From an uncultured delta proteobacterium (GTDB lineage: Bacteria > Myxococcota_A > Polyangia > Polyangiales > Polyangiaceae), in NCBI GenBank assembly GCA_963696385.1, contig CAVOKF010000004.1, positions 1,024,001-1,088,000 of the forward strand: a stretch of 64,000 bases of DNA, written 5' to 3'. Shown here piece after piece: positions 21,979-54,783 of the stretch. Positions within the stretch are counted from its first letter, which is position 1, and every line of letters starts with the position of its first letter. A program made the translations under genes and the position numbers. The notes beneath the pieces were generated by a model. It saw nothing but the letters and a program-made list of their open reading frames with translations. It was not told where the DNA came from and made no database searches.

Positions 21979-23286
<1,308 letters not shown>

Positions 23287-26645: not shown

Positions 26646-26728
26646 CGCGGCCCTCCGGTGCCGTCTGATCGACGGGCGCCCGTGGATTGCCCTGGTCTGC
26701 TGCCGTTTTGCCCTTTGAGGAGGACCCT

Positions 26729-28199
26729 GTGAGCGATGCACTGAAGGTCAAGATCGCCGATGTCTTCAATGAGCCCGGTTGCGAAAAGAACAAGGACAAA
26801 GGGGCGAAAGAGAAGAAGAAGGGGTGCTCCAAAGCGCTCACTCCCGGCGCCGCCGCAGGGGGTTGCGCATTCGACGGGGCAAAGATCGCGCTTCAGCCGA
26901 TTACCGACGTCGTGCATCTGGTGCACGGGCCTCTGGCCTGCGAAGGCAACGGATGGGACAATCGCCACGCCGCGAGCTCGGGGCCAACGACCTACAGGCA
27001 GGGGTTCACGACGGACATTTCCGAGATGGACATCGTGATGGGCAATGGCGAAAAGCGCCTTTACCGCGCGATCAAGGAAATCGTCAGCAAAGTACGCGCC
27101 GCCGGCCATTTTCGTCTATTCGACCTGCGTCACCGCGCTCATCGGAGACGACCTCGATGCCGTGTGCAAGCACGCGACCGAGAAATATGGAACGCCCGTC
27201 GTACCGGTGAACGCGCCGGGGTTCGTCGGATCGAAGAACCTCGGAAATAAACTCGGAGGCGAGGCCCTGCTCGACCACGTCATCGGAACGATCGAGCCCG
27301 ACGACGTGACGCCGCTCGATATCAATATTCTGGGCGAATACAACCTGTCGGGCGAGCTTTGGCAGGTCCTGCCGCTGTTCGAAAAGCTCGGGATCCGGGT
27401 ACGCGCGTGCATCACCGGCGATGCCCGCTACAAGGACGTAGCGTCGTCCCACCGCGCAAACGTCAATATGATGGTGTGCTCGACGGCGCTCATCAATCTG
27501 GCCCGCAAGATGGAGGAGCGGTACGGGATTCCGTACTTCGAGGGGTCGTTCTACGGGATCGAAGACACGTCGACGGCGCTCCGCACCACGGCGCGGATGC
27601 TGGTCGAACGCGGAGCGCCCCCGGACCTTCTGGCACGTACCGAAGCGCTCGTCGCGGCCGAGGAGGCGCGGGCCTGGGCCCGCATCGGCTCGTTCAAGGA
27701 ACGACTTCAGGGAAAGCGCGTGCTGCTCTACACGGGAGGCGTCAAATCTTGGTCGGTCGTGTCCGCTCTGCAGGAGATGGGCATGATCGTCGTGGGAACG
27801 TCGGTCCGCAAGTCGACCAAGGAGGACAAGGAGCGCATCAAAGAGATCATGAAAGGCGACCCGCACTTGGTCGAATCGATCCCACCGCGCGAGATGTACG
27901 CCCAGTTGAAGAGGGGCGATGCCGACATTTTGCTCTCGGGCGGACGCACGCAATTCGTGGCGCTCAAGGCCAAGATGCCCTGGCTCGATATCAACCAAGA
28001 ACGGCACCACGCGTATGGGGGATACGACGGGATGGTGGAGCTCGTCCGACAGCTCGACCTCGAGATCAATAGTCCGATCTGGGACGACGTGCGCCGGCCG
28101 GCGCCATGGGACTGCCCGGCCCCGAACGCGAGGCGAGACTCACAGGAGGGTGCGAAGGCGGACCGTGCGATGTCCCTCGCATCCACCGCTCGGAGCTAG
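26729..28199 (+). pseudogene. nifE: FeMo-co scaffold NifE, split by a +1 frameshift at 27089-27091
   Basis: GGCAFDGAK...IKEIVS in one frame and KYAPPAIFVYSTC... in the next; deleting one A from 'agcaaagtac' restores the reading frame. Confidence 0.9.
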
Positions 28200-28203
28200 C
28201 GCC

Positions 28204-29604
28204 ATGGGCCGTGTGACACCGTCGAAGAAAGCGTGCGCGGTCAATCCGCTCAAGTCGTCGACGCCGCTCGGGGCGGCGCTGGCGTACCTGGGTGTCGAAG
28301 GGGCCGTCCCGCTCTTTCACGGGTCGCAAGGTTGCACATCGTTCGCCCTGGTGCTGTCGGTTCGCCATTTCAAAGAAGCCATTCCGCTTCAGACGACGGC
28401 GATGGACGAGGCGGCGACCGTCCTCGGCGGCGCCGACAACCTCGAAGAGGCCATCATGGTCCTCAAGACCCGAATGAAACCATTGTTTATCGGGGTGGCA
28501 TCGACCGCCCTGGTGGAGACCCAAGGAGAAGACTTCGTAGGCGAATTGGCGTCCATCCTCGAGCGCCGGGGGCCCGAGCTCGAAGGCACGCAAGTCGTCT
28601 TCGCCTCGACCCCGGACTTCAAAGGGGCGCTCGAGGACGGATGGGCCAAAGCCACGACGGCGATTATCGAGGCGCTCGTCGCCGCCACCCCCTCGACGGG
28701 GCCCGCGGCCGCCTTGCCGAAGGTCAACGTCCTGCCCGGGGTGCACCAAACGCCCGCCGACATCGAGGAGCTCGCCGACGTGATTCGGAGCTTCGGGCTC
28801 GCCCCCATGTTTCTGCCCGACGTCTCCGGGTCGCTCGATGGCCACGTGCCCGACGCCTACGTCGGCACGAGCATGGGGGGAGCCCGCCTGGCAGAGATCG
28901 CGCGCATGGGCGAGGCGGTCCACACGATCGCCATCGGCGAGCACATGCGAGCGCCCGCCGAGGCGCTCGCCAAACGCACGGGCGGGACGGCCACGGTCCT
29001 CTCGACACTCACGGGATTGGAACCGTCGGACCGTCTGGTGGCGCTTCTGCAGGAGGTGTCGGGTCGGCCAGCCGGCGCGCGCTTGCGGCGGCAGCGCAGC
29101 CAGCTGATCGACGCGATGCTCGACAGCCACTTTCACTTCGGGGGCAAGCGCGTCGCCATTGCGGCAGACCCCGACCTTCTCTACACGCTCGTCAACCTGT
29201 TCGTGGCCATGGGCTCGGACGTCTGCGTGGCCATCGCGTCGACCGACGCCTCCCCGCTCCTGGAGCACCTGAAGTGCAACGTGGTGGTCGGCGATTTGGC
29301 CGACCTCGAGGAAGCTGCGGGGTGCGCGAAGGTCGACCTGCTCGTCGCCCACAGCCATGGCCGGCAAGCTGCCCACCGCCTCGGAATCCCGCTCTTTCGC
29401 GTGGGCTTTCCGGTCTTCGATCGGCTCGGCGTTCAGCATCGTTGCAGCGTGGGATACAGCGGAACGCGCCAGCTCATCACCGAACTCGCCAACATTCTCA
29501 TGGCCCAGATGCACGAGCACGCGCCGGCGGACTTCGCCGACGCCGTGCCACCCGATCCCATCGTGGAGGATACCCGGTATGGCCATGCGATTGCACAGCC
29601 TTGA
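28204..29604 (+). CDS. nifN: FeMo-co scaffold NifN
   Basis: NPLKSSTPLG, HGSQGCTSF, RVGFPVFDRLG. Confidence 0.96.
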   Translation: MGRVTPSKKACAVNPLKSSTPLGAALAYLGVEGAVPLFHGSQGCTSFALVLSVRHFKEAIPLQTTAMDEAATVLGGADNLEEAIMVLKTRMKPLFIGVASTALVETQGEDFVGELASILERRGPELEGTQVVFASTPDFKGALEDGWAKATTAIIEALVAATPSTGPAAALPKVNVLPGVHQTPADIEELADVIRSFGLAPMFLPDVSGSLDGHVPDAYVGTSMGGARLAEIARMGEAVHTIAIGEHMRAPAEALAKRTGGTATVLSTLTGLEPSDRLVALLQEVSGRPAGARLRRQRSQLIDAMLDSHFHFGGKRVAIAADPDLLYTLVNLFVAMGSDVCVAIASTDASPLLEHLKCNVVVGDLADLEEAAGCAKVDLLVAHSHGRQAAHRLGIPLFRVGFPVFDRLGVQHRCSVGYSGTRQLITELANILMAQMHEHAPADFADAVPPDPIVEDTRYGHAIAQP

Positions 29605-30067
29605 AGTCACCGAGAATGGTTGCGACGAGGAACCGGGGCCGAGACTCCGTATCGCCATTGCAAGCCGTGATGGGCAAGCGCTCAACGCGCACTTCGGATC
29701 GGCCGAGAAGTTCATGGTTTACGACGTGAGCCCCCGGAGCCACGCATTCGTCAAGACGATCGAGATGAGCCAGGTGTCGGACGAATCGGGCGATCACAAG
29801 GCCGAGAGCGAGGACAAAAACGAGCGTAAAATCGCGTCGCTTGCCGGGTGCAACATCGTGTTCGTCCTCGCCATCGGGGGTCCGGTCGCGGCCAAAGTCA
29901 TTGCGGCCAAGATTCATCCCATCAAGATTGCCGAGCCCGAATCCATCGATTCGGTGATTTCGAACGTTCAGAAACTCATCAAGGCGGATCCGCCGCCGTG
30001 GCTTCGCAAAGTGCTCGCGACGAACCCGTCGCGGTCGATGACATTCTTGGACGACGACGACGGATGA
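29579..30067 (+). CDS. nifX: NifX, copy 1
   Basis: IAIASRDGQALNAHFG; AIGGPVAAKV; PPPWLRK. Confidence 0.92.
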   Translation: MAMRLHSLEVTENGCDEEPGPRLRIAIASRDGQALNAHFGSAEKFMVYDVSPRSHAFVKTIEMSQVSDESGDHKAESEDKNERKIASLAGCNIVFVLAIGGPVAAKVIAAKIHPIKIAEPESIDSVISNVQKLIKADPPPWLRKVLATNPSRSMTFLDDDDG

Positions 30068-38714: not shown

Positions 38715-39458
38715 TCAGGTGCAGTCGCTCGCGGCGCCCGTGTAATTCTTGACGCGCTCGCCTTCGGTGGCGCCGAGAATCTTGGCGAGCCACGGCGGGG
38801 GCGACTTGGCAAGCACGCGCTGCAAGTCGGTCAGAATCGCTCGCGCCGGACCGCCGTCGGGAACGGGAAGCAAATGAATGTCCGCCTTGATCACTTTGGC
38901 GGCCGCGGGGCCACCGATCGAGACGATGTAGAGAACTCGGCAGTCTCGAATGAGGTCGACGCGAAAGGCGTTCTTGTCGCCCGAAGCATCGGCTTGTGCG
39001 GCGGACCGGATGTCGATCAGGCGAATCTCGGAAGCCGACACCTGGTAGACGAGATAGAAACAGGCCGACCCGAAGTGGCCGTTCAACTCTTCGCCGCGGT
39101 TCGATGCCATGGCGACGCGAACCGACCGCGGCATGTCTCCATCTGTGTAGGCCTCGATGATCCGTGCGTCGTCTTTGCCGGCTTCTCCCCAGAGAATCCG
39201 CACGGCCTCTTTGAACGCCGCCATGTCGGCGGTGCGGTATTGTTCGCTCCCGTCCTCTTCGCCATCGAGATTGTACGAACCACCGAACGACGCTTTGAGG
39301 TTCGCCACCGTGACCCGGCTCAAGGCCGCTTCGTCAAGCTCGTCGCCGAGGCACGTGTGCAAGGCATCAATCAGGCTCGGCAGAGGAACGTCGTGCAAAG
39401 CCTTTGCGGCAAACGCAATTCTCAAGGCGACGTCGTTGGTAATGGCTGCTTCGGGCAT
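38715..39458 (-). CDS. NifY/NafY-like FeMo-co protein
   Basis: N-terminal ALRIA.AA domain plus NifX-like HFGSA domain. Confidence 0.8.
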   Translation of the reverse strand: MPEAAITNDVALRIAFAAKALHDVPLPSLIDALHTCLGDELDEAALSRVTVANLKASFGGSYNLDGEEDGSEQYRTADMAAFKEAVRILWGEAGKDDARIIEAYTDGDMPRSVRVAMASNRGEELNGHFGSACFYLVYQVSASEIRLIDIRSAAQADASGDKNAFRVDLIRDCRVLYIVSIGGPAAAKVIKADIHLLPVPDGGPARAILTDLQRVLAKSPPPWLAKILGATEGERVKNYTGAASDCT

Positions 39459-40713: not shown

Positions 40714-41778
<1,065 letters not shown>

Positions 41779-42008: not shown

Positions 42009-42488
42009 ATGGCCACAACAGTACGACAGCTACGGCTCATCGACGGCGGCACCCGCAACGCCGCCGTCCCGACGAAGACGGGTGCCGGTCCGCGCGTCCG
42101 CGTCGCGATCGCGAGCCGGGACGGCAAGGCGCTCAACGCGCACTTCGGGTTCGCCGAGAAGTTGATGGTCTACGACGTGACTCCGCGAACCCATCGTCTG
42201 GTGCAAGTGGTCACGTCCGTGGCCGACGACTCCCGGTCCCGTACGGCCGAGAGCGAAGACGACGCGATTGGACCCAAGGTGGCCGCGCTCGCCGGTTGCG
42301 ACCTCTTGTTCGTTCTCGCCATCGGACCGCCCGCGGCGGCCAAGGTCATTCGGGCGAACATTCATCCCATCAAGGTAAAAGACCCGGAAGAGATTGAGAC
42401 AGTCATTGCGCGCGTTCAAACGATGATGAACGGCGAGCCGCCGTCGTGGCTTCGGAGAGCTCTCGCCGAGAGTCGGGCACAACCATGA
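42009..42488 (+). CDS. nifX: NifX, copy 2
   Basis: VAIASRDGKALNAHFG; PPSWLRRAL. Confidence 0.88.
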   Translation: MATTVRQLRLIDGGTRNAAVPTKTGAGPRVRVAIASRDGKALNAHFGFAEKLMVYDVTPRTHRLVQVVTSVADDSRSRTAESEDDAIGPKVAALAGCDLLFVLAIGPPAAAKVIRANIHPIKVKDPEEIETVIARVQTMMNGEPPSWLRRALAESRAQP

Positions 42489-48261: not shown

Positions 48262-48277
48262 GGGTGACGGGTGCTTG

Positions 48278-48293
48278 AGCAACGTTCGTTCCA
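48278..48293 (-). promoter_or_regulatory. sigma54 promoter for fixBCX-modC
   Basis: TGGAAC-gaacg-TTGCT; twin UAS at 48442-48457 and 48464-48479. Confidence 0.65.
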
Positions 48294-48527
48294 GCCCTGG
48301 CGTCAGGCCGACCCCGGTGAATTCCGCGGAGTGCCGAACCGTCCCCTTTTGCAGCCAAGCCCCGAGCCTCGTGAGGTTTCGGACCACGCGGGGTGCACCG
48401 GAGGGCCCTCGTCCGCTCAAGCGGTGGCCCGATCGCCGGATTGTTGGACACCGCACACGGTCTTGTCGATCATCCGACAACTCGCGTTTTGGGCGTCGCA
48501 TTCCCGGCCAAAGGCCCGGCTTTGCCC

Positions 48528-48543
48528 TGGTACGCGAGTTGCT
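48528..48543 (+). promoter_or_regulatory. sigma54 promoter for the SIR2-like gene
   Basis: TGGTAC-gcgag-TTGCT. Confidence 0.75.
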
Positions 48544-48654
48544 GGGTCGAGAGCGCGCCGCTCCATCCGCTTCCCGAAGGGGGCCAGGGGGCGCGCATGC
48601 GTGATGACGCGACTCGTGTTCCAAAGCCCCGCTTTCTCGAAAGGAAGAAAAGAC

Positions 48655-49545
48655 GTGACCCTAGCCGCCCCCACCGTGGAGCCGCTTTCCTGGACCGCGA
48701 TCGAGCCCCACCCGGACAGTTGGTTTCGGGAAGTCAGCGAGGGCCTACGCGCGGGAAGGTTGGCTCCGTATCTGGGTCCGGGAGTCATCGAACTTGCGCG
48801 CGCCTCCGTCCCATCGACGCAAGAGGCGCTCGCGGCGTTTTTGGGAGGCAAGGTCGCGCTGCCGCGCCGCGCGCGGGGTAACCTCGGGGCGGCCGCCCAA
48901 TACATCGAAAGCCACCGGCACAGGAGCGTGGTCGTTCAATTGATGGCGGAGGCCTTCGCCGTGCCGGTGTCGCCTCTTGCCATTCATCGGTACCTCGCCG
49001 AGCTGCCGCTGCCCCTCGTCGTCGACACCTGGTACGACGGCGCGATGCGCGCGGCCTTGGCGGGCCGGGCTAATTGGGGCGAAATTCAGGGCGTTCGCCG
49101 CTCGGGACTCGGCGGGGATCCGTACTACGCGACGTACGACGCAACCGGAGTGGCGTGCCCGATCGAGGTGGCAGACGGGTGGAAAACGGTTCTCTATAAG
49201 CCGCATGGTGCGAGCACGCCGGCGAAAAACTTCTTGGTCTCGGACTCGGACTACGTAGAAGTTTTGACCGAGATCGATATTCAGACCCCCATTCCTGAAG
49301 TGGTCAAGACGCGGCGTTCTCGCGTTGGCTTCGTGTTTCTCGGTTGTCGCCTCAACGACCAAACTTTGCGCTGCTACGCTCGTCAGCTGCTCAAGCGATC
49401 GGGCGAACGCCACTTCATCGTGATCGAGCCGGGTGTCGCAACCAGAAACGAGCGGCGTTTCATCAGCGAGCACGGCCTGATGGCGCTCGTGAGCCCGTTG
49501 GCCGCCGCCCTCGATCAGTTGACGGCCTTTCCGCGTGCGGCTTGA
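48655..49545 (+). CDS. nif-associated SIR2-like domain protein
   Basis: [35 protein letters not shown]. Confidence 0.8.
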
Positions 49546-51182: not shown

Positions 51183-51311
51183 CCGGAACCGCGACGATGC
51201 GCTCTCGCCATCATGCGCCCCGCATTCGGCGTACGGACATTCCGTGTGAAGTTTGTCGGAACTGCGACACGAGGCATGAACGAAGAGAGCGGATTCTCGC
51301 CGGCTGGGCTG

Positions 51312-51327
51312 TGGCACGTATCTCGCT
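51312..51327 (+). promoter_or_regulatory. sigma54 promoter for the HesB-globin genes
   Basis: TGGCAC-gtatc-TCGCT; UAS at 51254-51269. Confidence 0.72.
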
Positions 51328-51340
51328 ACGAGTCTAAACG

Positions 51341-51748
51341 ATGGCGCCCAATTCGATGACAAGCGACACGCTTTCCCTCTCGCCCTCGGCATCGCCCTCG
51401 AACTCGCCCGCCGTAACGGCCGCAGCGGAACAATTCATGCGGCGCATGGTGCGGTTCGGGGGCGCCGGCGCCGGCTTTCGACTCGTGGTGAGTCTCGGTG
51501 GGTGTTCGGGGTTGGGTTCGGAGTTCAGTCTCGAATCCGGGCCGAGGCCGGGCGACCGCGTTCTCGAGGTGAACGGCCTGAAGATTTTTCTCCCCGCCCA
51601 AAGTTACGAGCTTCTCGATGGGGTCACCATCGACTTCGCCGACACGCGAATACAAACGGGGTTGACCTTTCTGCATGCGAAGGCGAGTGGCGGATGCCAG
51701 ACGAGCAGCGCGCCCAAGTTGGTGCAGCTCGCGCCGCTCCGCTCCTGA
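51341..51748 (+). CDS. HesB/IscA-like carrier (paralog of 33279-33671)
   Basis: AEQFMRRMVRFGG..GFRLVVSLGGCSGL. Confidence 0.8.
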   Translation: MAPNSMTSDTLSLSPSASPSNSPAVTAAAEQFMRRMVRFGGAGAGFRLVVSLGGCSGLGSEFSLESGPRPGDRVLEVNGLKIFLPAQSYELLDGVTIDFADTRIQTGLTFLHAKASGGCQTSSAPKLVQLAPLRS

Positions 51749-51804
51749 CCGCGGACGGTGGATGGGCGCATGCTGCTGCGAGGCCAGCCTCGGACACGAA
51801 CCCC

Positions 51805-52218
51805 ATGGCGGCGATGGAATTGAAAACGGCGGAGGTGCCCAACCCGCACTTTGCCCGGATAGGCGGCGCGCCCGTCGTTCGTCTCCTTGTGGAGTCGTTC
51901 TATCGCCGGATGGACACGTTGCCCGAGGCGGCCGGTATCCGTGCGATGCACGCCGAGGATCTCACCGAGATTAAATTCGTGCTCCAGCTCTATCTCGTGG
52001 AGTGGCTGGGCGGTCCGAAGGACTACAGTCAGCGTCGCGGTCCCCCGAGACTGCGCGCGCGGCACTCGATGTTCCCCATCGGCGTCGCGGAGCGCGACGC
52101 ATGGATGCTGTGCATGCGCGGCGCGCTCGACGAGGTCGTCGCGGACGCGGAGCTCCGGAATCAGCTCGAGAACGCGTTCTTGCGGACCGCGAACGCGATC
52201 GTGAACACGCGCCCCTGA
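51805..52218 (+). CDS. group II truncated haemoglobin
   Basis: IGG...LVESFY..MD, WLGGP..YS..RG.PRLRARH..FPIG..ERDAW. Confidence 0.9.
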   Translation: MAAMELKTAEVPNPHFARIGGAPVVRLLVESFYRRMDTLPEAAGIRAMHAEDLTEIKFVLQLYLVEWLGGPKDYSQRRGPPRLRARHSMFPIGVAERDAWMLCMRGALDEVVADAELRNQLENAFLRTANAIVNTRP

Positions 52219-52344
52219 GTGAGACCGTCAGCCCTCCTCCCGCGTGGAGCAGGTCCCAAAGTGGCGTAGACGCGTAAGAAAGGCCCACGTGATTCACGCG
52301 GCATCGGGTTTCTGGCTCCAGGGCGCTTTCCTACGCAGGCAATC

Positions 52345-52360
52345 CGGCACGGTTCGTGCT
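52345..52360 (+). promoter_or_regulatory. sigma54 promoter for the FeSII-rubrerythrin genes
   Basis: CGGCAC-ggttc-GTGCT; no clean UAS seen nearby. Confidence 0.6.
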
Positions 52361-52395
52361 GAGCCGGATCGAACGAACAGGAGCGCGAATCCGAT

Positions 52396-53304
52396 ATGGC
52401 CAACGTAACATTCTCTTCTCCGGTGATGGCGCGGGACATCACCGTCTATGCCGTCGCGGGGGATCGCGGAACCATCCTCGCACTCGCCAAGGAGCACAAG
52501 ATTCCCATCCCTTTCGATTGCCAGGACGGCGAGTGCGGATCCTGTCTCGTCGAAATCAAGCACCTATCGGTCGGCGCGCGGTACGGCATCGCACTCACCG
52601 AGAAGGAGAAGGAACTCCTCCGGCAACTCGGCAGGATTAGCCGGGAAGAGATCAAGGACGCCGAGGTCAACGACATGCCGCCGCGGTTCCGACTGGCGTG
52701 CCAGTGCTTCGTTCGAAACGAGGATATTATCGTGTCCTTCGAGGGGGATACGACGCTGCCCCCCAAGGGGCCGGCTCTCTCGATCGCCGCGGCCGTTTAC
52801 CGGGGCGGCGTCTCGATCCGAACGCTGGAGGAGTTCTTGAGCTATGCGGTCAAAGTCGAGGAGGACGCGGCTATCCACTTCGAACGCCTCGCAGAGGCAA
52901 TGGATGCTTGCGGCAATCGGGATGTGGCCGTGCTGTTTCGCCAACTCGGTGGGTATTCTCGCCTCCATCTCGAAGAGGCCAAAGCGAAGTCCGTGGCGCA
53001 CGGAGTCGTGGTGACCCTTCCTGCCAACTCCGCATGGCCCGATCACGAGACACCGGAGCGTACGGCGTTCTGGGCGGGGCACCCCTCGCGCTCGCGGCTC
53101 GACGCGCTCAAGGCCGCGCTCCAAGGCGAGCGGCGCGGCTTCGAATTCTATTTTGCCGTCGCCGGGACCACGACGGATGCGGGCATCCGTGCCGTGGCCA
53201 AAGAGTTCGTCAAAGAAGAAACGGAACACGTCGATACGCTCAAACAGTGGATCGCGAAAGAAGAAGCCTCGCTGCGAGCGCCGTTCGAGGGCGTCACCTC
53301 ATGA
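52396..53304 (+). CDS. FeSII (Shethna II)-like 2Fe-2S ferredoxin fused to a rubrerythrin/ferritin-like domain
   Basis: TFSSP..VAGDRGT..IPFDCQDGECGSCLV..LTEKE..DMPPRFRLACQ..ED; C-terminal four-helix bundle with EETEH. Confidence 0.85.
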   Translation: MANVTFSSPVMARDITVYAVAGDRGTILALAKEHKIPIPFDCQDGECGSCLVEIKHLSVGARYGIALTEKEKELLRQLGRISREEIKDAEVNDMPPRFRLACQCFVRNEDIIVSFEGDTTLPPKGPALSIAAAVYRGGVSIRTLEEFLSYAVKVEEDAAIHFERLAEAMDACGNRDVAVLFRQLGGYSRLHLEEAKAKSVAHGVVVTLPANSAWPDHETPERTAFWAGHPSRSRLDALKAALQGERRGFEFYFAVAGTTTDAGIRAVAKEFVKEETEHVDTLKQWIAKEEASLRAPFEGVTS

Positions 53305-53332
53305 TGCGGGCGGAGGCGAAGGAAAAGTCGCG

Positions 53333-53788
53333 ATGAACGACGTGAACACCTTTCTGGCGCACGCCATCCAACTCGAACGCGACGCGGCGCGGCGTTTCGA
53401 AGACTTGTCGCATTCGATGCAAACCGCCGGCAACCGTGAGGTCGAAGCGCTCTTTCGTCGCCTCGGGGAGTTTTCGAGGCTACACCTCCAGACGGCCCTG
53501 GCGCGCGGCGGCTTCCGGAGCCTGCCGGAGATTTCACCGGCCGAATTTCAGTGGCCCGACGGCGTCACACCCGAAGCGGCGGGGTGGCAAGGTGTCGACG
53601 CCGGGCTCGACGTGCACGGCGCGTTGCAGGTCGCGCTCGAAGGCGAGCGCAGCGGCCACGCCTACTACGAGGCGATTGCCCACACCTCGGACGATCCCGA
53701 AGTGGCCACGATGGCGCTCTCGTTCGCGGAGGAAGAGGCGCAACATGTCTCCGAACTGGAGCGCTGGGTCGCACGTTTTTCGCCCTGA
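53333..53788 (+). CDS. rubrerythrin/ferritin-like protein
   Basis: AIQLERDA..F, ALEGE...YY, EEEAQH. Confidence 0.85.
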   Translation: MNDVNTFLAHAIQLERDAARRFEDLSHSMQTAGNREVEALFRRLGEFSRLHLQTALARGGFRSLPEISPAEFQWPDGVTPEAAGWQGVDAGLDVHGALQVALEGERSGHAYYEAIAHTSDDPEVATMALSFAEEEAQHVSELERWVARFSP

Positions 53789-53908
53789 CACCGCGGTCCG
53801 AAAAATGTCGTACGCTCAGTGTTCGCGGCTCCGGCGCTCGGCGCAGCGCTGGCGAATGTTCGTTTGTCATTTGCAGTTGGGCGATCAGCCCAGCACGCGA
53901 GGCTCGCC

Positions 53909-54115
53909 ATGACGGACCATGTGTACAAGATTGAAGAGTTCGTGGGATCGTCTCCGATTGGACAAGATGAGGCGATTCGAAACGCGATCAAGCGGGCGGC
54001 CGAGACGCTGCACCGTCTTCGATGGTTCGAGGTGACGGAAACTCGGGGCCAGATCACGGACGGCCGTATCGTGCATTGGCAAGTTACGGTGCGCGTGGGT
54101 TCGACGCTCGAATAG
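53909..54115 (+). CDS. dodecin (flavin-binding)
   Basis: DHVYK.EEFVGSS...LRWFEV.E.RG...HWQVT. Confidence 0.9.
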
Positions 54116-54401
54116 TGCCTTCTCACGGCGACCCGCCCGATGAGATCGAGCGGGGGGCGCGTCACGGCCTTCATTGCCCGCCGTCCCGTGTCGCGACACC
54201 GACAAGACCTGGAACGAACGACATCGCTCCAGCCGGAAGTTGCCTCTCGTCACTTATGGACCGGCGCCAGAGCTCGGTCGGCGCCTTCTTCGATCTCATC
54301 GTCGACGAACGCCCTTGTCAGGAACCGTACAGGGTCGCAAACCTCGCAAAGGCAACGCCGTCGACGCGACGAATGCAGCGGTAAAACAAGGCACTCCTGG
54401 C

Positions 54402-54417
54402 TGGCACGGGCGTTGCG
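54402..54417 (+). promoter_or_regulatory. sigma54 promoter for FeSI-ygfZ
   Basis: TGGCAC-gggcg-TTGCG; UAS at 54189-54204 and 54316-54331. Confidence 0.8.
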
Positions 54418-54438
54418 CTCAGGATGGGATGGAGCACG

Positions 54439-54783
54439 ATGGACGCCCCCGCAGCACTCGAATTACCGGTCGTTTTCCGACACCATGCGTTTTGCTGCTT
54501 TCAGCAACGCCCGCCGGGGCACCCACGCGGGAGCTGCTCCGGCCTGGGTGCCGGCCCGCTCTGGGAGCGCCTCAGCGGACAACTGCAAGCAAAGGGGCTC
54601 GCCGACGCTTCGCTGGTCGCGACGGGCTGCCTCGGCTTTTGCGGGGCCGGTCCGCTCATGGTCGTGTACCCCGCCGGGGTCTGGTACCAGCCGCGAACGC
54701 CCGCCGACATCGACGAGATCGTGCAGTCGCATTTCGTCGAGGGCAAACCGGTCGAGAGGCTCATCGTCGTGCTGAAGGGCTAG
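54439..54783 (+). CDS. thioredoxin-like 2Fe-2S ferredoxin (FeSI/Shethna I family)
   Basis: HAFCC.Q.RPPGHPRGSC; GCLGFC..GP.MVVYP.GVWY. Confidence 0.88.
   Translation: MDAPAALELPVVFRHHAFCCFQQRPPGHPRGSCSGLGAGPLWERLSGQLQAKGLADASLVATGCLGFCGAGPLMVVYPAGVWYQPRTPADIDEIVQSHFVEGKPVERLIVVLKG

Follow-up and report, generated by a model that had tools for sequence, protein, structure and literature searches.

The window, as we call the whole 64,000-nt stretch of DNA analysed here, is a nif island (nifV, nifHDK, nifENX, nifB, nifS, a second nifH, fdxN, nifQ, fixBC and nifA) containing an open reading frame (ORF) of 302 aa, designated ORF A (52396-53304, + strand), in which a FeSII (Shethna II)-type domain is fused to a ferritin-like four-helix bundle; 28 nt past its stop codon starts ORF B, which codes for a stand-alone paralog of the bundle. 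ORF A probably represents a second type of nitrogenase protection against oxygen, and the FeSII/ferritin-like pairing was found almost exclusively in nitrogen-fixing bacteria. The original prediction, made from the letters of the window, had placed such a fusion and a following paralog at positions 52396 to 53788, and both genes and their span were borne out; it overlooked, however, that the fusion is not a one-off, but a large, conserved, nitrogenase-linked family. As far as our literature search showed, the fusion had not been previously studied: the full-text search, which did not extend to Narehood 2025, Hoffmann 2014 or supplements, returned no paper on a FeSII/ferritin-like fusion among the matches listed.

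The N-terminal domain of ORF A

ORF A and FeSII from Azotobacter vinelandii (5ffi) can be aligned over residues 1-118 of both proteins with no gap (E 1.4e-33, 119.5 bits); 57 of 118 positions are identical as counted from the match line (~48%; Foldseek gives 45-48%), and every FeSII motif listed in the original prediction for residues ~1-118 is present in this alignment. The four ligands of the [2Fe-2S] cluster of this adrenodoxin-type domain (Cys42, 47, 50 and 102) are aligned to those of FeSII and are invariant in the 37 fused sequences of our conservation alignments, which also included 30 stand-alone paralogs. An AlphaFold2 (AF2) model of ORF A, for which the alignment consisted of the 37 fused homologues, had a mean predicted local distance difference test (pLDDT) of 79.4 and a predicted template modelling score (pTM) of 0.54; its top Foldseek match was 9cu1_N, FeSII from the nitrogenase complex, with a template modelling score (TM) of 0.84. 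Judged from its sequence, the N-domain therefore genuinely belongs to the FeSII (Shethna II)/FdxD family of [2Fe-2S] ferredoxins, grouping with FeSII-type proteins and not with ordinary ferredoxins.

The structural mechanism of FeSII protection was solved in 2025 (Franke 2025, PMC11754109); FeSII is described there as having an N-loop, absent from other ferredoxins, with helices hN1 (69-78) and hN2 (84-91). In the N-domain of the AF2 model, helices span 69-77 and 83-91, within a stretch (59-98) aligned to FeSII without a gap; as these helices coincide with hN1 and hN2, the N-loop of the FeSII family is present in ORF A. From the redox-switch pairs described for FeSII, D44:K70 and E71:R99 (Franke 2025), three residues (D44, E71 and R99) show no variation among the fused sequences, K70 is retained in at least 90% of them, and D93 is also kept. 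The contacts of FeSII with NifH are R72, K76, N73, E41 and E118 (Franke 2025); most of them appear to be kept in conservative form in ORF A (K72, R76, D41 and D118), with Glu instead of N73; this does not refute the original prediction, for which a lack of nitrogenase-contact residues had been named as refuting. The switch and contact residues of ORF A are invariant or conserved in at least 90% of the fused sequences, the exception being position 76, where R predominates and K or L occurs in some. Within the N-loop, T68, E71, L75 and G79 are invariant and K70, K72, E73, Q77 and L78 reach at least 90%. The partner residues E69, R101, N108 and E112 all occur in the NifH of the window, as expected for any NifH. 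Additionally, the N-domain is better conserved than the bundle in all 80 related loci analysed (70-92% versus 52-82%), these being the loci kept from 324 species genomes encoding a relative.

The linker, the ferritin-like bundle and its candidate metal site

The two domains are joined by a linker that overlaps a stretch of low confidence (121-140) in the AF2 model. P122 and G137 are invariant, and at least 90% of the fused sequences share T120, P126, A131, A132 and G138. Helices 144-171, 175-201, 234-258 and 262-294 of the model form the bundle, residues 143-289 matching 2oh3 (COG1633) at E 2.5e-17, while ORF B matches it at E 2.2e-20. The protein of Protein Data Bank (PDB) entry 2OH3, from Magnetospirillum magnetotacticum, is uncharacterised and is the closest solved relative of the bundle and of ORF B (profile 1.1e-33). 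In the Foldseek search it came second with a TM of 0.71, after 9cu1_N, followed by ferritins at E about 1e-4 and 15-18% identity. Pfam assigned Fer2 (3.2e-10) and Rubrerythrin to ORF A, and Rubrerythrin (2e-9) to ORF B, the Rubrerythrin match being partial; it found no rubredoxin-type FeCys4 domain in ORF A, and NCBIfam had no family for either protein at E 1e-5. Aligned with residues 136-297 of ORF A, ORF B shows 40% identity (E 1.3e-31), and a protein-atlas search with ORF B returned generic rubrerythrin or ferritin names only.

The candidate metal ligands in the bundle of ORF A are E155, S188/H191, E245 and E275/H278. As had been noticed from the translations, the first ExxH motif is replaced, reading Y-S188-R-L-H191 in ORF A and F-S48-R-L-H51 in ORF B, whereas the second is kept (E275..H278 and E135..H138, respectively). 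Comparison of a profile of the paralogs with the di-iron-type protein TM1526 (1vjx) placed YSRLH over QERIH, indicating that Ser stands for the Glu of the first ExxH; this Ser is invariant in the 37 fused and the 30 stand-alone sequences. The di-iron set of rubrerythrins (E, ExxH, E, ExxH) is thus incomplete, with five of the six canonical ligands present. Residues E155, S188, R189, H191, W214, P215, P220, E221, E245, E250, E274, E275 and H278 are invariant in all fused bundles, and the same set (E15, S48, R49, H51, W74, P75, P80, E81, E105, E134, E135 and H138) is invariant in all stand-alone paralogs. Since these sequences are down to 41-60% identical to those of the window, the fixation of five ligand positions plus S188 and R189 argues against a dead metal site. 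Like ORF A and ORF B, the 2OH3 protein has SxxH (FSTLH) instead of the first ExxH, and it shares the P-E of the W-P...P-E loop; it differs in being stand-alone, in having no described function, and in having Thr at the position of the invariant Arg of the family; a literature search on this entry found no paper.

Association of the fusion and of the ORF B family with nitrogenase

The genomes of 50 of the 80 loci were searched for nifD (E 1e-50 or better), which was found in 46, with 43 over the curated cut-off. In an evenly drawn sample of 401 genomes of Alphaproteobacteria, centred on one fusion carrier, a FeSII-like gene was present in seven (three fused, four stand-alone) and nifD in nine, and all seven were among the nine (Fisher p 1e-13; 5e-12 without the centre genome). 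The genome of the window contains no other FeSII-like gene.

A stand-alone paralog occurs within the examined flank in 48 of the 80 loci, just downstream of the fusion in 35, divergent upstream in 11 and upstream on the same strand in two. Five genomes without an adjacent paralog all had a copy elsewhere, situated 2-22 kb from nifD in three of them. In the alphaproteobacterial sample, the paralog profile matched 30 genomes and the nine nifD-positive ones had the nine best scores (at least 148.6 bits, versus 133.8 bits for the best of the 21 nifD-negative matches), although the profile was built from carriers and relatedness contributes to this ranking. The top scorers include the four genomes with a stand-alone FeSII and two with no FeSII. 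No ferritin-like gene lies within 1.5 kb of FeSII in any of these four stand-alone loci, as a split arrangement of the fusion would have it, but all four genomes have one elsewhere, which in G269 is about 5 kb away, in the nif region. The ORF B family itself therefore clearly travels with nif, relatedness notwithstanding. Together with the existence of the fusion, this suggests that FeSII-type proteins and the ferritin-like family act together. In Methyloversatilis thermotolerans (locus L016, 7105-7584), a hemerythrin-domain gene (2.7e-17) follows the fusion, in the place taken by the ferritin-like paralog in other genomes.

Distribution and phylogeny of the fusion

The fusion family comprises 1064 protein clusters from Alpha-, Beta- and Gammaproteobacteria and Polyangiaceae, and all 80 loci contain the fusion as a single open frame of 297-313 aa. 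Their carriers include Methylocystis, Methylocapsa, Rhodopseudomonas, Rhodoblastus, Rhodopila, photosynthetic Bradyrhizobium, Telmatospirillum, Methyloversatilis, Derxia, Pelomonas, and metagenome-assembled genomes (MAGs) of Steroidobacteraceae and Polyangiaceae. The Polyangiaceae MAGs are the closest to the window (86-87%), and the nearest fusion loci (L004 and L005) come from 'delta proteobacterium' and Polyangiaceae MAGs; the window may thus derive from a nitrogen-fixing myxobacterium. The FeSII family as a whole is small, with 211 clusters at 50% identity (E 1e-3 or better).

In a quick tree of 185 N-domains, with many unresolved forks, an arbitrary root and without the Azotobacter sequence, all 37 fused rows fell inside one group of 85 rows, supported by a Shimodaira-Hasegawa-like approximate likelihood ratio test value (SH-aLRT) of 91. 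This group also contains 26 short-tailed forms of 132-135 aa and 22 short rows, mostly apparent fragments, and is nested in a larger group with stand-alone forms of 121-123 aa. The nesting of the basic-tailed 132-135-aa forms (Rhodoblastus type) within the fused clade suggests a duplication with loss of the bundle. Near the base of the larger group is the stand-alone P0245, which scores 130.6 bits to 5ffi, versus 119.5 for the domain of the window. The closest stand-alone relatives of the N-domain are alphaproteobacterial proteins of 121-123 aa (62-66% identity; for example those of Cereibacter, Salipiger and Actibacterium), which we infer to be orthologues of FdxD. Since the Asn92 of ORF A is also common in stand-alone relatives of this length, we rejected the idea that the Arg of FeSII at this position was lost owing to the missing free C-terminus. 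In the tree, the domain of the window clusters with those of Beta- and Gammaproteobacteria.

In some carriers, an additional stand-alone FeSII-like gene lies beside the fusion (L068, 5369-5719; L014, 6918-7271; proteins P0145-P0184). A search of a plasmid collection identified one stand-alone relative and no fusion. On plasmid NZ_CP070492.1 of Methylococcus sp. EFPC2 (L091, 8001-8369), a stand-alone FeSII-like gene (50% identical) is situated between nifK and nifE, in a cluster that also has a group II truncated hemoglobin and YgfZ, companions shared with the window.

Promoter motifs and transcription

Upstream sequences of 300 nt were available for 78 related loci and were compared with 5926 background windows of the same length. 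A sigma-54-like site is situated upstream of the fusion in 39 of the 78 loci, versus 108 background windows (1.8%). The motif TGT-N10-ACA, which we take to be the upstream activating sequence (UAS) of NifA, was found in 32, versus 184 background windows (3.1%), and both motifs occur together in 16. Part of the TGT-N10-ACA count is inflated by eleven Methylocystis-type loci (L040-L042, L045-L048 and L050-L053) with a perfect palindrome, TGTCTGAG(T/A)TCAGACA, 31-39 nt before the fusion start (at -31 or -39), which may be an operator for another regulator. Loci distant from nif genes, L062 and L063 among them, also have promoter-like motifs. The window itself contains 15 exact matches to TGT-N10-ACA, versus 4.8 expected. 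The sigma-54-like site preceding ORF A, CGGCACGGTTCGTGCT, is also found at -44 in L004; that of the iscA-like gene upstream, TGGCACGTATCTCGCT, is a better match and is paired with a TGT-N10-ACA motif, and nifH, nifB, the second nifH and a ferredoxin gene at 54424 have motif pairs of this kind ahead of them.

Twenty public runs contain the stretch, two of them RNA libraries. From one of these, a contig of 1084 nt spans 52384-53425, that is, the whole of ORF A and 92 nt of ORF B, and the RNA library of a second study provided a contig for 52398-52963; in the first study, a DNA contig also extends over the entire stretch, at flat depth. Contigs from RNA libraries indicate presence in these libraries, and not level, strand, operon structure or transcription starts, and contig depths were not used for ranking genes. 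No RNA contig covers positions 52270-52366, and the first positions of two of these contigs, 52384 and 52398, fall behind the sigma-54-like site, the contig from run X10 having adapter letters there; this is at most a weak hint of a 5′ end. In the spacer between ORF A and ORF B (53318), RNA run X10 and DNA run X2 contain a 21-nt insertion that looks like a strain variant.

Gene organisation of the window

The coordinates of ORF A, ORF B and the neighbouring features of a putative transcription unit are summarized in Table 1. The start of the globin gene was taken as the Met preceding the domain. A globin gene is also situated just upstream of the fusion in locus L005, and a dodecin gene likewise follows the paralog in L011.

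Table 1. ORF A, ORF B and adjacent features in the window
Feature	Coordinates	Strand	Evidence or remarks
NifA-UAS-like TGT-N10-ACA site ahead of the iscA-like gene	51254..51269	+	43 nt before the sigma-54-like site at 51312
Sigma-54-like promoter TGGCACGTATCTCGCT ahead of the iscA-like gene	51312..51327	+	1 mismatch; sequence match only
IscA/HesB-like Fe-S assembly protein, first gene of the putative unit	51341..51748	+	Pfam Fe-S_biosyn 5.9e-8; NCBIfam TIGR00049 1e-14, below cut-off
Truncated (bacterial-like) globin	51805..52218	+	Pfam Bac_globin 1.1e-31, residues 117-234 of ORF 51502-52218
Sigma-54-like site CGGCACGGTTCGTGCT, 36 nt before the ATG of ORF A	52345..52360	+	2 mismatches, GG-N10-GC kept
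ORF A residues 1-118, FeSII/FdxD-type [2Fe-2S] ferredoxin domain with complete N-loop	52396..52749	+	5ffi E 1.4e-33
ORF A residues 119-142, conserved linker (TLP..GP.LS.AA..YKGG)	52750..52821	+	Conservation in fused sequences; pLDDT about 58-59
ORF A residues 143-295, 2OH3-type ferritin-like four-helix bundle	52822..53280	+	2oh3 E 2.5e-17
ORF B, stand-alone ferritin-like paralog (E15, S48/H51, E105, E135/H138)	53333..53788	+	151 aa; 2oh3 E 2.2e-20
Dodecin, last gene of the putative unit	53819..54115	+	Pfam Dodecin 6e-25

Further downstream (0.6 kb) is a gene for a thioredoxin-like [2Fe-2S] ferredoxin (54402-54783) that resembles the Azotobacter model NF041613 (4.5e-23, below cut-off), whose Azotobacter type is presumably Shethna protein I. 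This gene has its own sigma-54-like site (54402) and TGT-N10-ACA motifs at 54189 and 54316, and is followed by a YgfZ-like gene and nifA. A SIR2_2-domain protein is encoded at 48271-49545 (2.2e-18); its homologs are situated directly upstream of the fusion in L019, L021 and L033, and one adjoins the stand-alone FeSII gene in L087. The region 50178-51182 matches only positions 2-131 of the 457-position Peptidase_M3 model and looks like a gene fragment within the nif island. The island has two copies of nifH (22021-23286 and 40807-41778; TIGR01287, 450 and 451 bits) and three NifX-like genes (29357-30067, 42009-42488 and, on the minus strand, 38715-39458). The nifE gene looks frameshifted, with a frame at 26669-27250 continued at 27039-28199 and a switch near 27090-27110, which could be an assembly indel or a broken gene.

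Comparison with known systems

ORF A shares with the FeSII proteins of A. vinelandii and A. beijerinckii (PDB 5FFI, 8RHO, 9CU0-2 and 9IEY) the fold, the four Cys, the full N-loop, the pairs D44:K70 and E71:R99, and the occurrence with nitrogenase, and seems to retain the charged NifH contacts conservatively. It differs in its size (302 versus 122 aa), in the absence of a C-terminus capping the cluster, and in that R92, K53, K63 and N73 are not kept. Additionally, its gene is in a nif island with sigma-54-like promoters, whereas the FeSII gene of Azotobacter is said to sit elsewhere in the genome than the nif genes (PMC13474568). Ferredoxin V of Rhodobacter capsulatus (FdxD) is described as fesII-like, NifA-activated and O2-protective (PMC8777916), supporting Mo-nitrogenase in the presence of O2 (PMC8777916, PMC11301756); it is a small stand-alone ferredoxin, unlike the fused ORF A. 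According to these two sources, protection has been demonstrated with FeSII of Azotobacter alone, and has been proposed for FdxD and a Gluconacetobacter ferredoxin. As ORF A, the rubrerythrins of Desulfovibrio vulgaris (Rbr) and Anabaena (RbrA) combine a ferritin-like four-helix bundle with a small Fe-S electron-transfer domain, and RbrA protects nitrogenase from H2O2 (PMC6616624); however, ORF A has an N-terminal [2Fe-2S] FeSII domain instead of a C-terminal rubredoxin, and one Glu of the E/ExxH/E/ExxH set is Ser.

Possible function of ORF A

Whereas the domain identities, conservation, co-occurrence with nifD, promoter-like motifs and presence in RNA libraries are observed, the nitrogenase binding, metal content, electron path and chemistry of ORF A are inferred. 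In our preferred model, for which the chances appear about even, ORF A is an O2 switch of the FeSII/FdxD type that contains its own redox metal domain, with which O2 or H2O2 would be reduced or sensed locally. Its gene and ORF B would be read from NifA/sigma-54-type promoters with those for the IscA-like protein, the truncated globin and the dodecin. O2 would oxidise the [2Fe-2S] cluster and free the N-loop, as in A. vinelandii, and the freed FeSII domain would dock on NifH, whereby nitrogenase would be switched off and shielded. The bundle would hold a redox-active metal centre exchanging electrons with the [2Fe-2S] cluster, similarly to the rubredoxin domain in rubrerythrin, and this centre would reduce or report O2 or H2O2 where ORF A meets NifH. 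The idea put forward with the original prediction, of an O2/peroxide sensor or reductase, possibly as a heterodimer with ORF B, remains plausible.

Several observations weigh against this model. FeSII places its free C-terminal carboxylate (A122) directly over the [4Fe-4S] cluster of NifH, and in the resting state this C-terminus is clamped by R92 (Franke 2025, PMC11754109). ORF A has no free C-terminus near 122, its chain extending by another 180 residues, and it has Asn at position 92; the interface of Azotobacter FeSII can therefore not be copied exactly, and the 180-residue appendage may clash with the NifH interface; the bundle would be tethered at this interface if docking is conserved, and otherwise docking differs. 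Besides the Glu in place of N73, the position of K53 (the partner of D93') is also Glu, and the contact of K63 with D204 of NifD in the MoFe protein (Franke 2025) is not kept, with Tyr63 in ORF A adjoining a variable stretch (58-62). The bridging Glu of the first ExxH is missing from the bundle, and the pTM of 0.54 means that the mutual arrangement of both domains is not predicted by the AF2 model. Moreover, four of the 50 fusion genomes searched, all MAGs, were nifD-negative, and a nif or fix marker is situated within 6 kb of the fusion in only 25 of the 80 loci, indicating that the fusion gene is often unlinked to nif, as in Azotobacter. Finally, the loci and genomes in the promoter and genome counts are related, so that these counts overstate independence, and RNA-library contigs can contain DNA.

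The alternative that best survives, although it seems rather unlikely, is a peroxidase or oxidase of the ferredoxin-rubrerythrin type that never binds nitrogenase and clears H2O2 or O2 from the cytoplasm of diazotrophic cells, the [2Fe-2S] domain merely taking the role of the rubredoxin domain as an internal electron relay. The architecture, parallel to that of rubrerythrin, and the protection of nitrogenase by Anabaena RbrA simply through H2O2 removal (PMC6616624) are in its favour, as are the absence of the C-terminus that Azotobacter FeSII uses at the NifH interface and the 55 loci without a nif or fix marker within 6 kb. Nevertheless, the N-loop, which in FeSII makes the NifH contacts and which a mere relay would not need, is kept without indels and is among the best-conserved parts of the protein, and this strict conservation argues against such a relay. 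The higher conservation of the N-domain than of the catalytic-looking bundle also disagrees with a free peroxidase, and peroxidase-type rubrerythrins have a canonical di-iron site that is incomplete in ORF A.

A more ambitious version of our preferred model, which we consider doubtful, is that the fusion is a self-powered oxygen scrubber inside the protected nitrogenase complex and that the ORF B family is a general partner of FeSII/FdxD proteins. The bundle would be tethered exactly where the C-terminus of Azotobacter FeSII caps the [4Fe-4S] cluster of NifH, and electrons from reduced NifH would pass via the [2Fe-2S] cluster to reduce O2 or H2O2 at the most sensitive spot of the enzyme. The clusters of NifH and FeSII are 12.5 A apart in the Azotobacter complex (Franke 2025, PMC11754109). 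If true, the partnership of the ORF B family with FeSII/FdxD could explain the release of the protected complex, a question left open in Franke 2025.

It is improbable that ORF A is an iron-handling or cluster-repair module, whose bundle would take up or donate iron for oxidised nitrogenase or Fe-S clusters while the FeSII domain provides electrons or targeting. Its position behind an iscA-like gene, in a window with nifS, iscU, hscA/hscB, a second cysteine desulfurase and bacterioferritin, and the resemblance of the second half of the bundle to encapsulated ferritins (EncB 6e-5, EncFtn 7e-5) would suit this function. However, the Fe-S assembly neighbourhood is specific to the window and a few loci, with HesB in two of the 80; there is no similarity to known repair proteins, and the Foldseek matches to cage-forming ferritins are weak. 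A similarly low probability corresponds to a metal-free structural add-on, in which the bundle changes only the oligomer state or filament geometry of an ordinary FeSII switch. Ferritin-like bundles commonly dimerise, one canonical ligand has been lost, and the 133-aa bundle-less forms nested in the fused clade indicate that the N-domain can exist alone; the five ligand positions plus S188 and R189, invariant in every fused and stand-alone sequence, argue against this explanation. An assembly error joining two neighbouring genes, conceivable given that the apparent frameshift in nifE makes indel errors possible in this assembly, is refuted by the same open frame in all 80 loci from independent assemblies and in 1064 protein clusters, and by one RNA-library contig and one DNA contig that span the junction.

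Significance

From these results, FeSII-type proteins would seem to be a common feature of proteobacterial diazotrophs, with one large clade having a conserved metal domain. Transfer of nitrogenase has been named as an application of FeSII (Franke 2025, PMC11754109), and the fusion and the ORF B family would be extra parts to consider for its transfer into aerobic hosts or plant organelles. As evidence of the Rosetta-stone type, the fusion hints at joint action of the oxygen switch and a ferritin-like family that is widespread and nif-linked, and is a candidate for how diazotrophs may couple the switching-off of nitrogenase to the removal of oxygen species.

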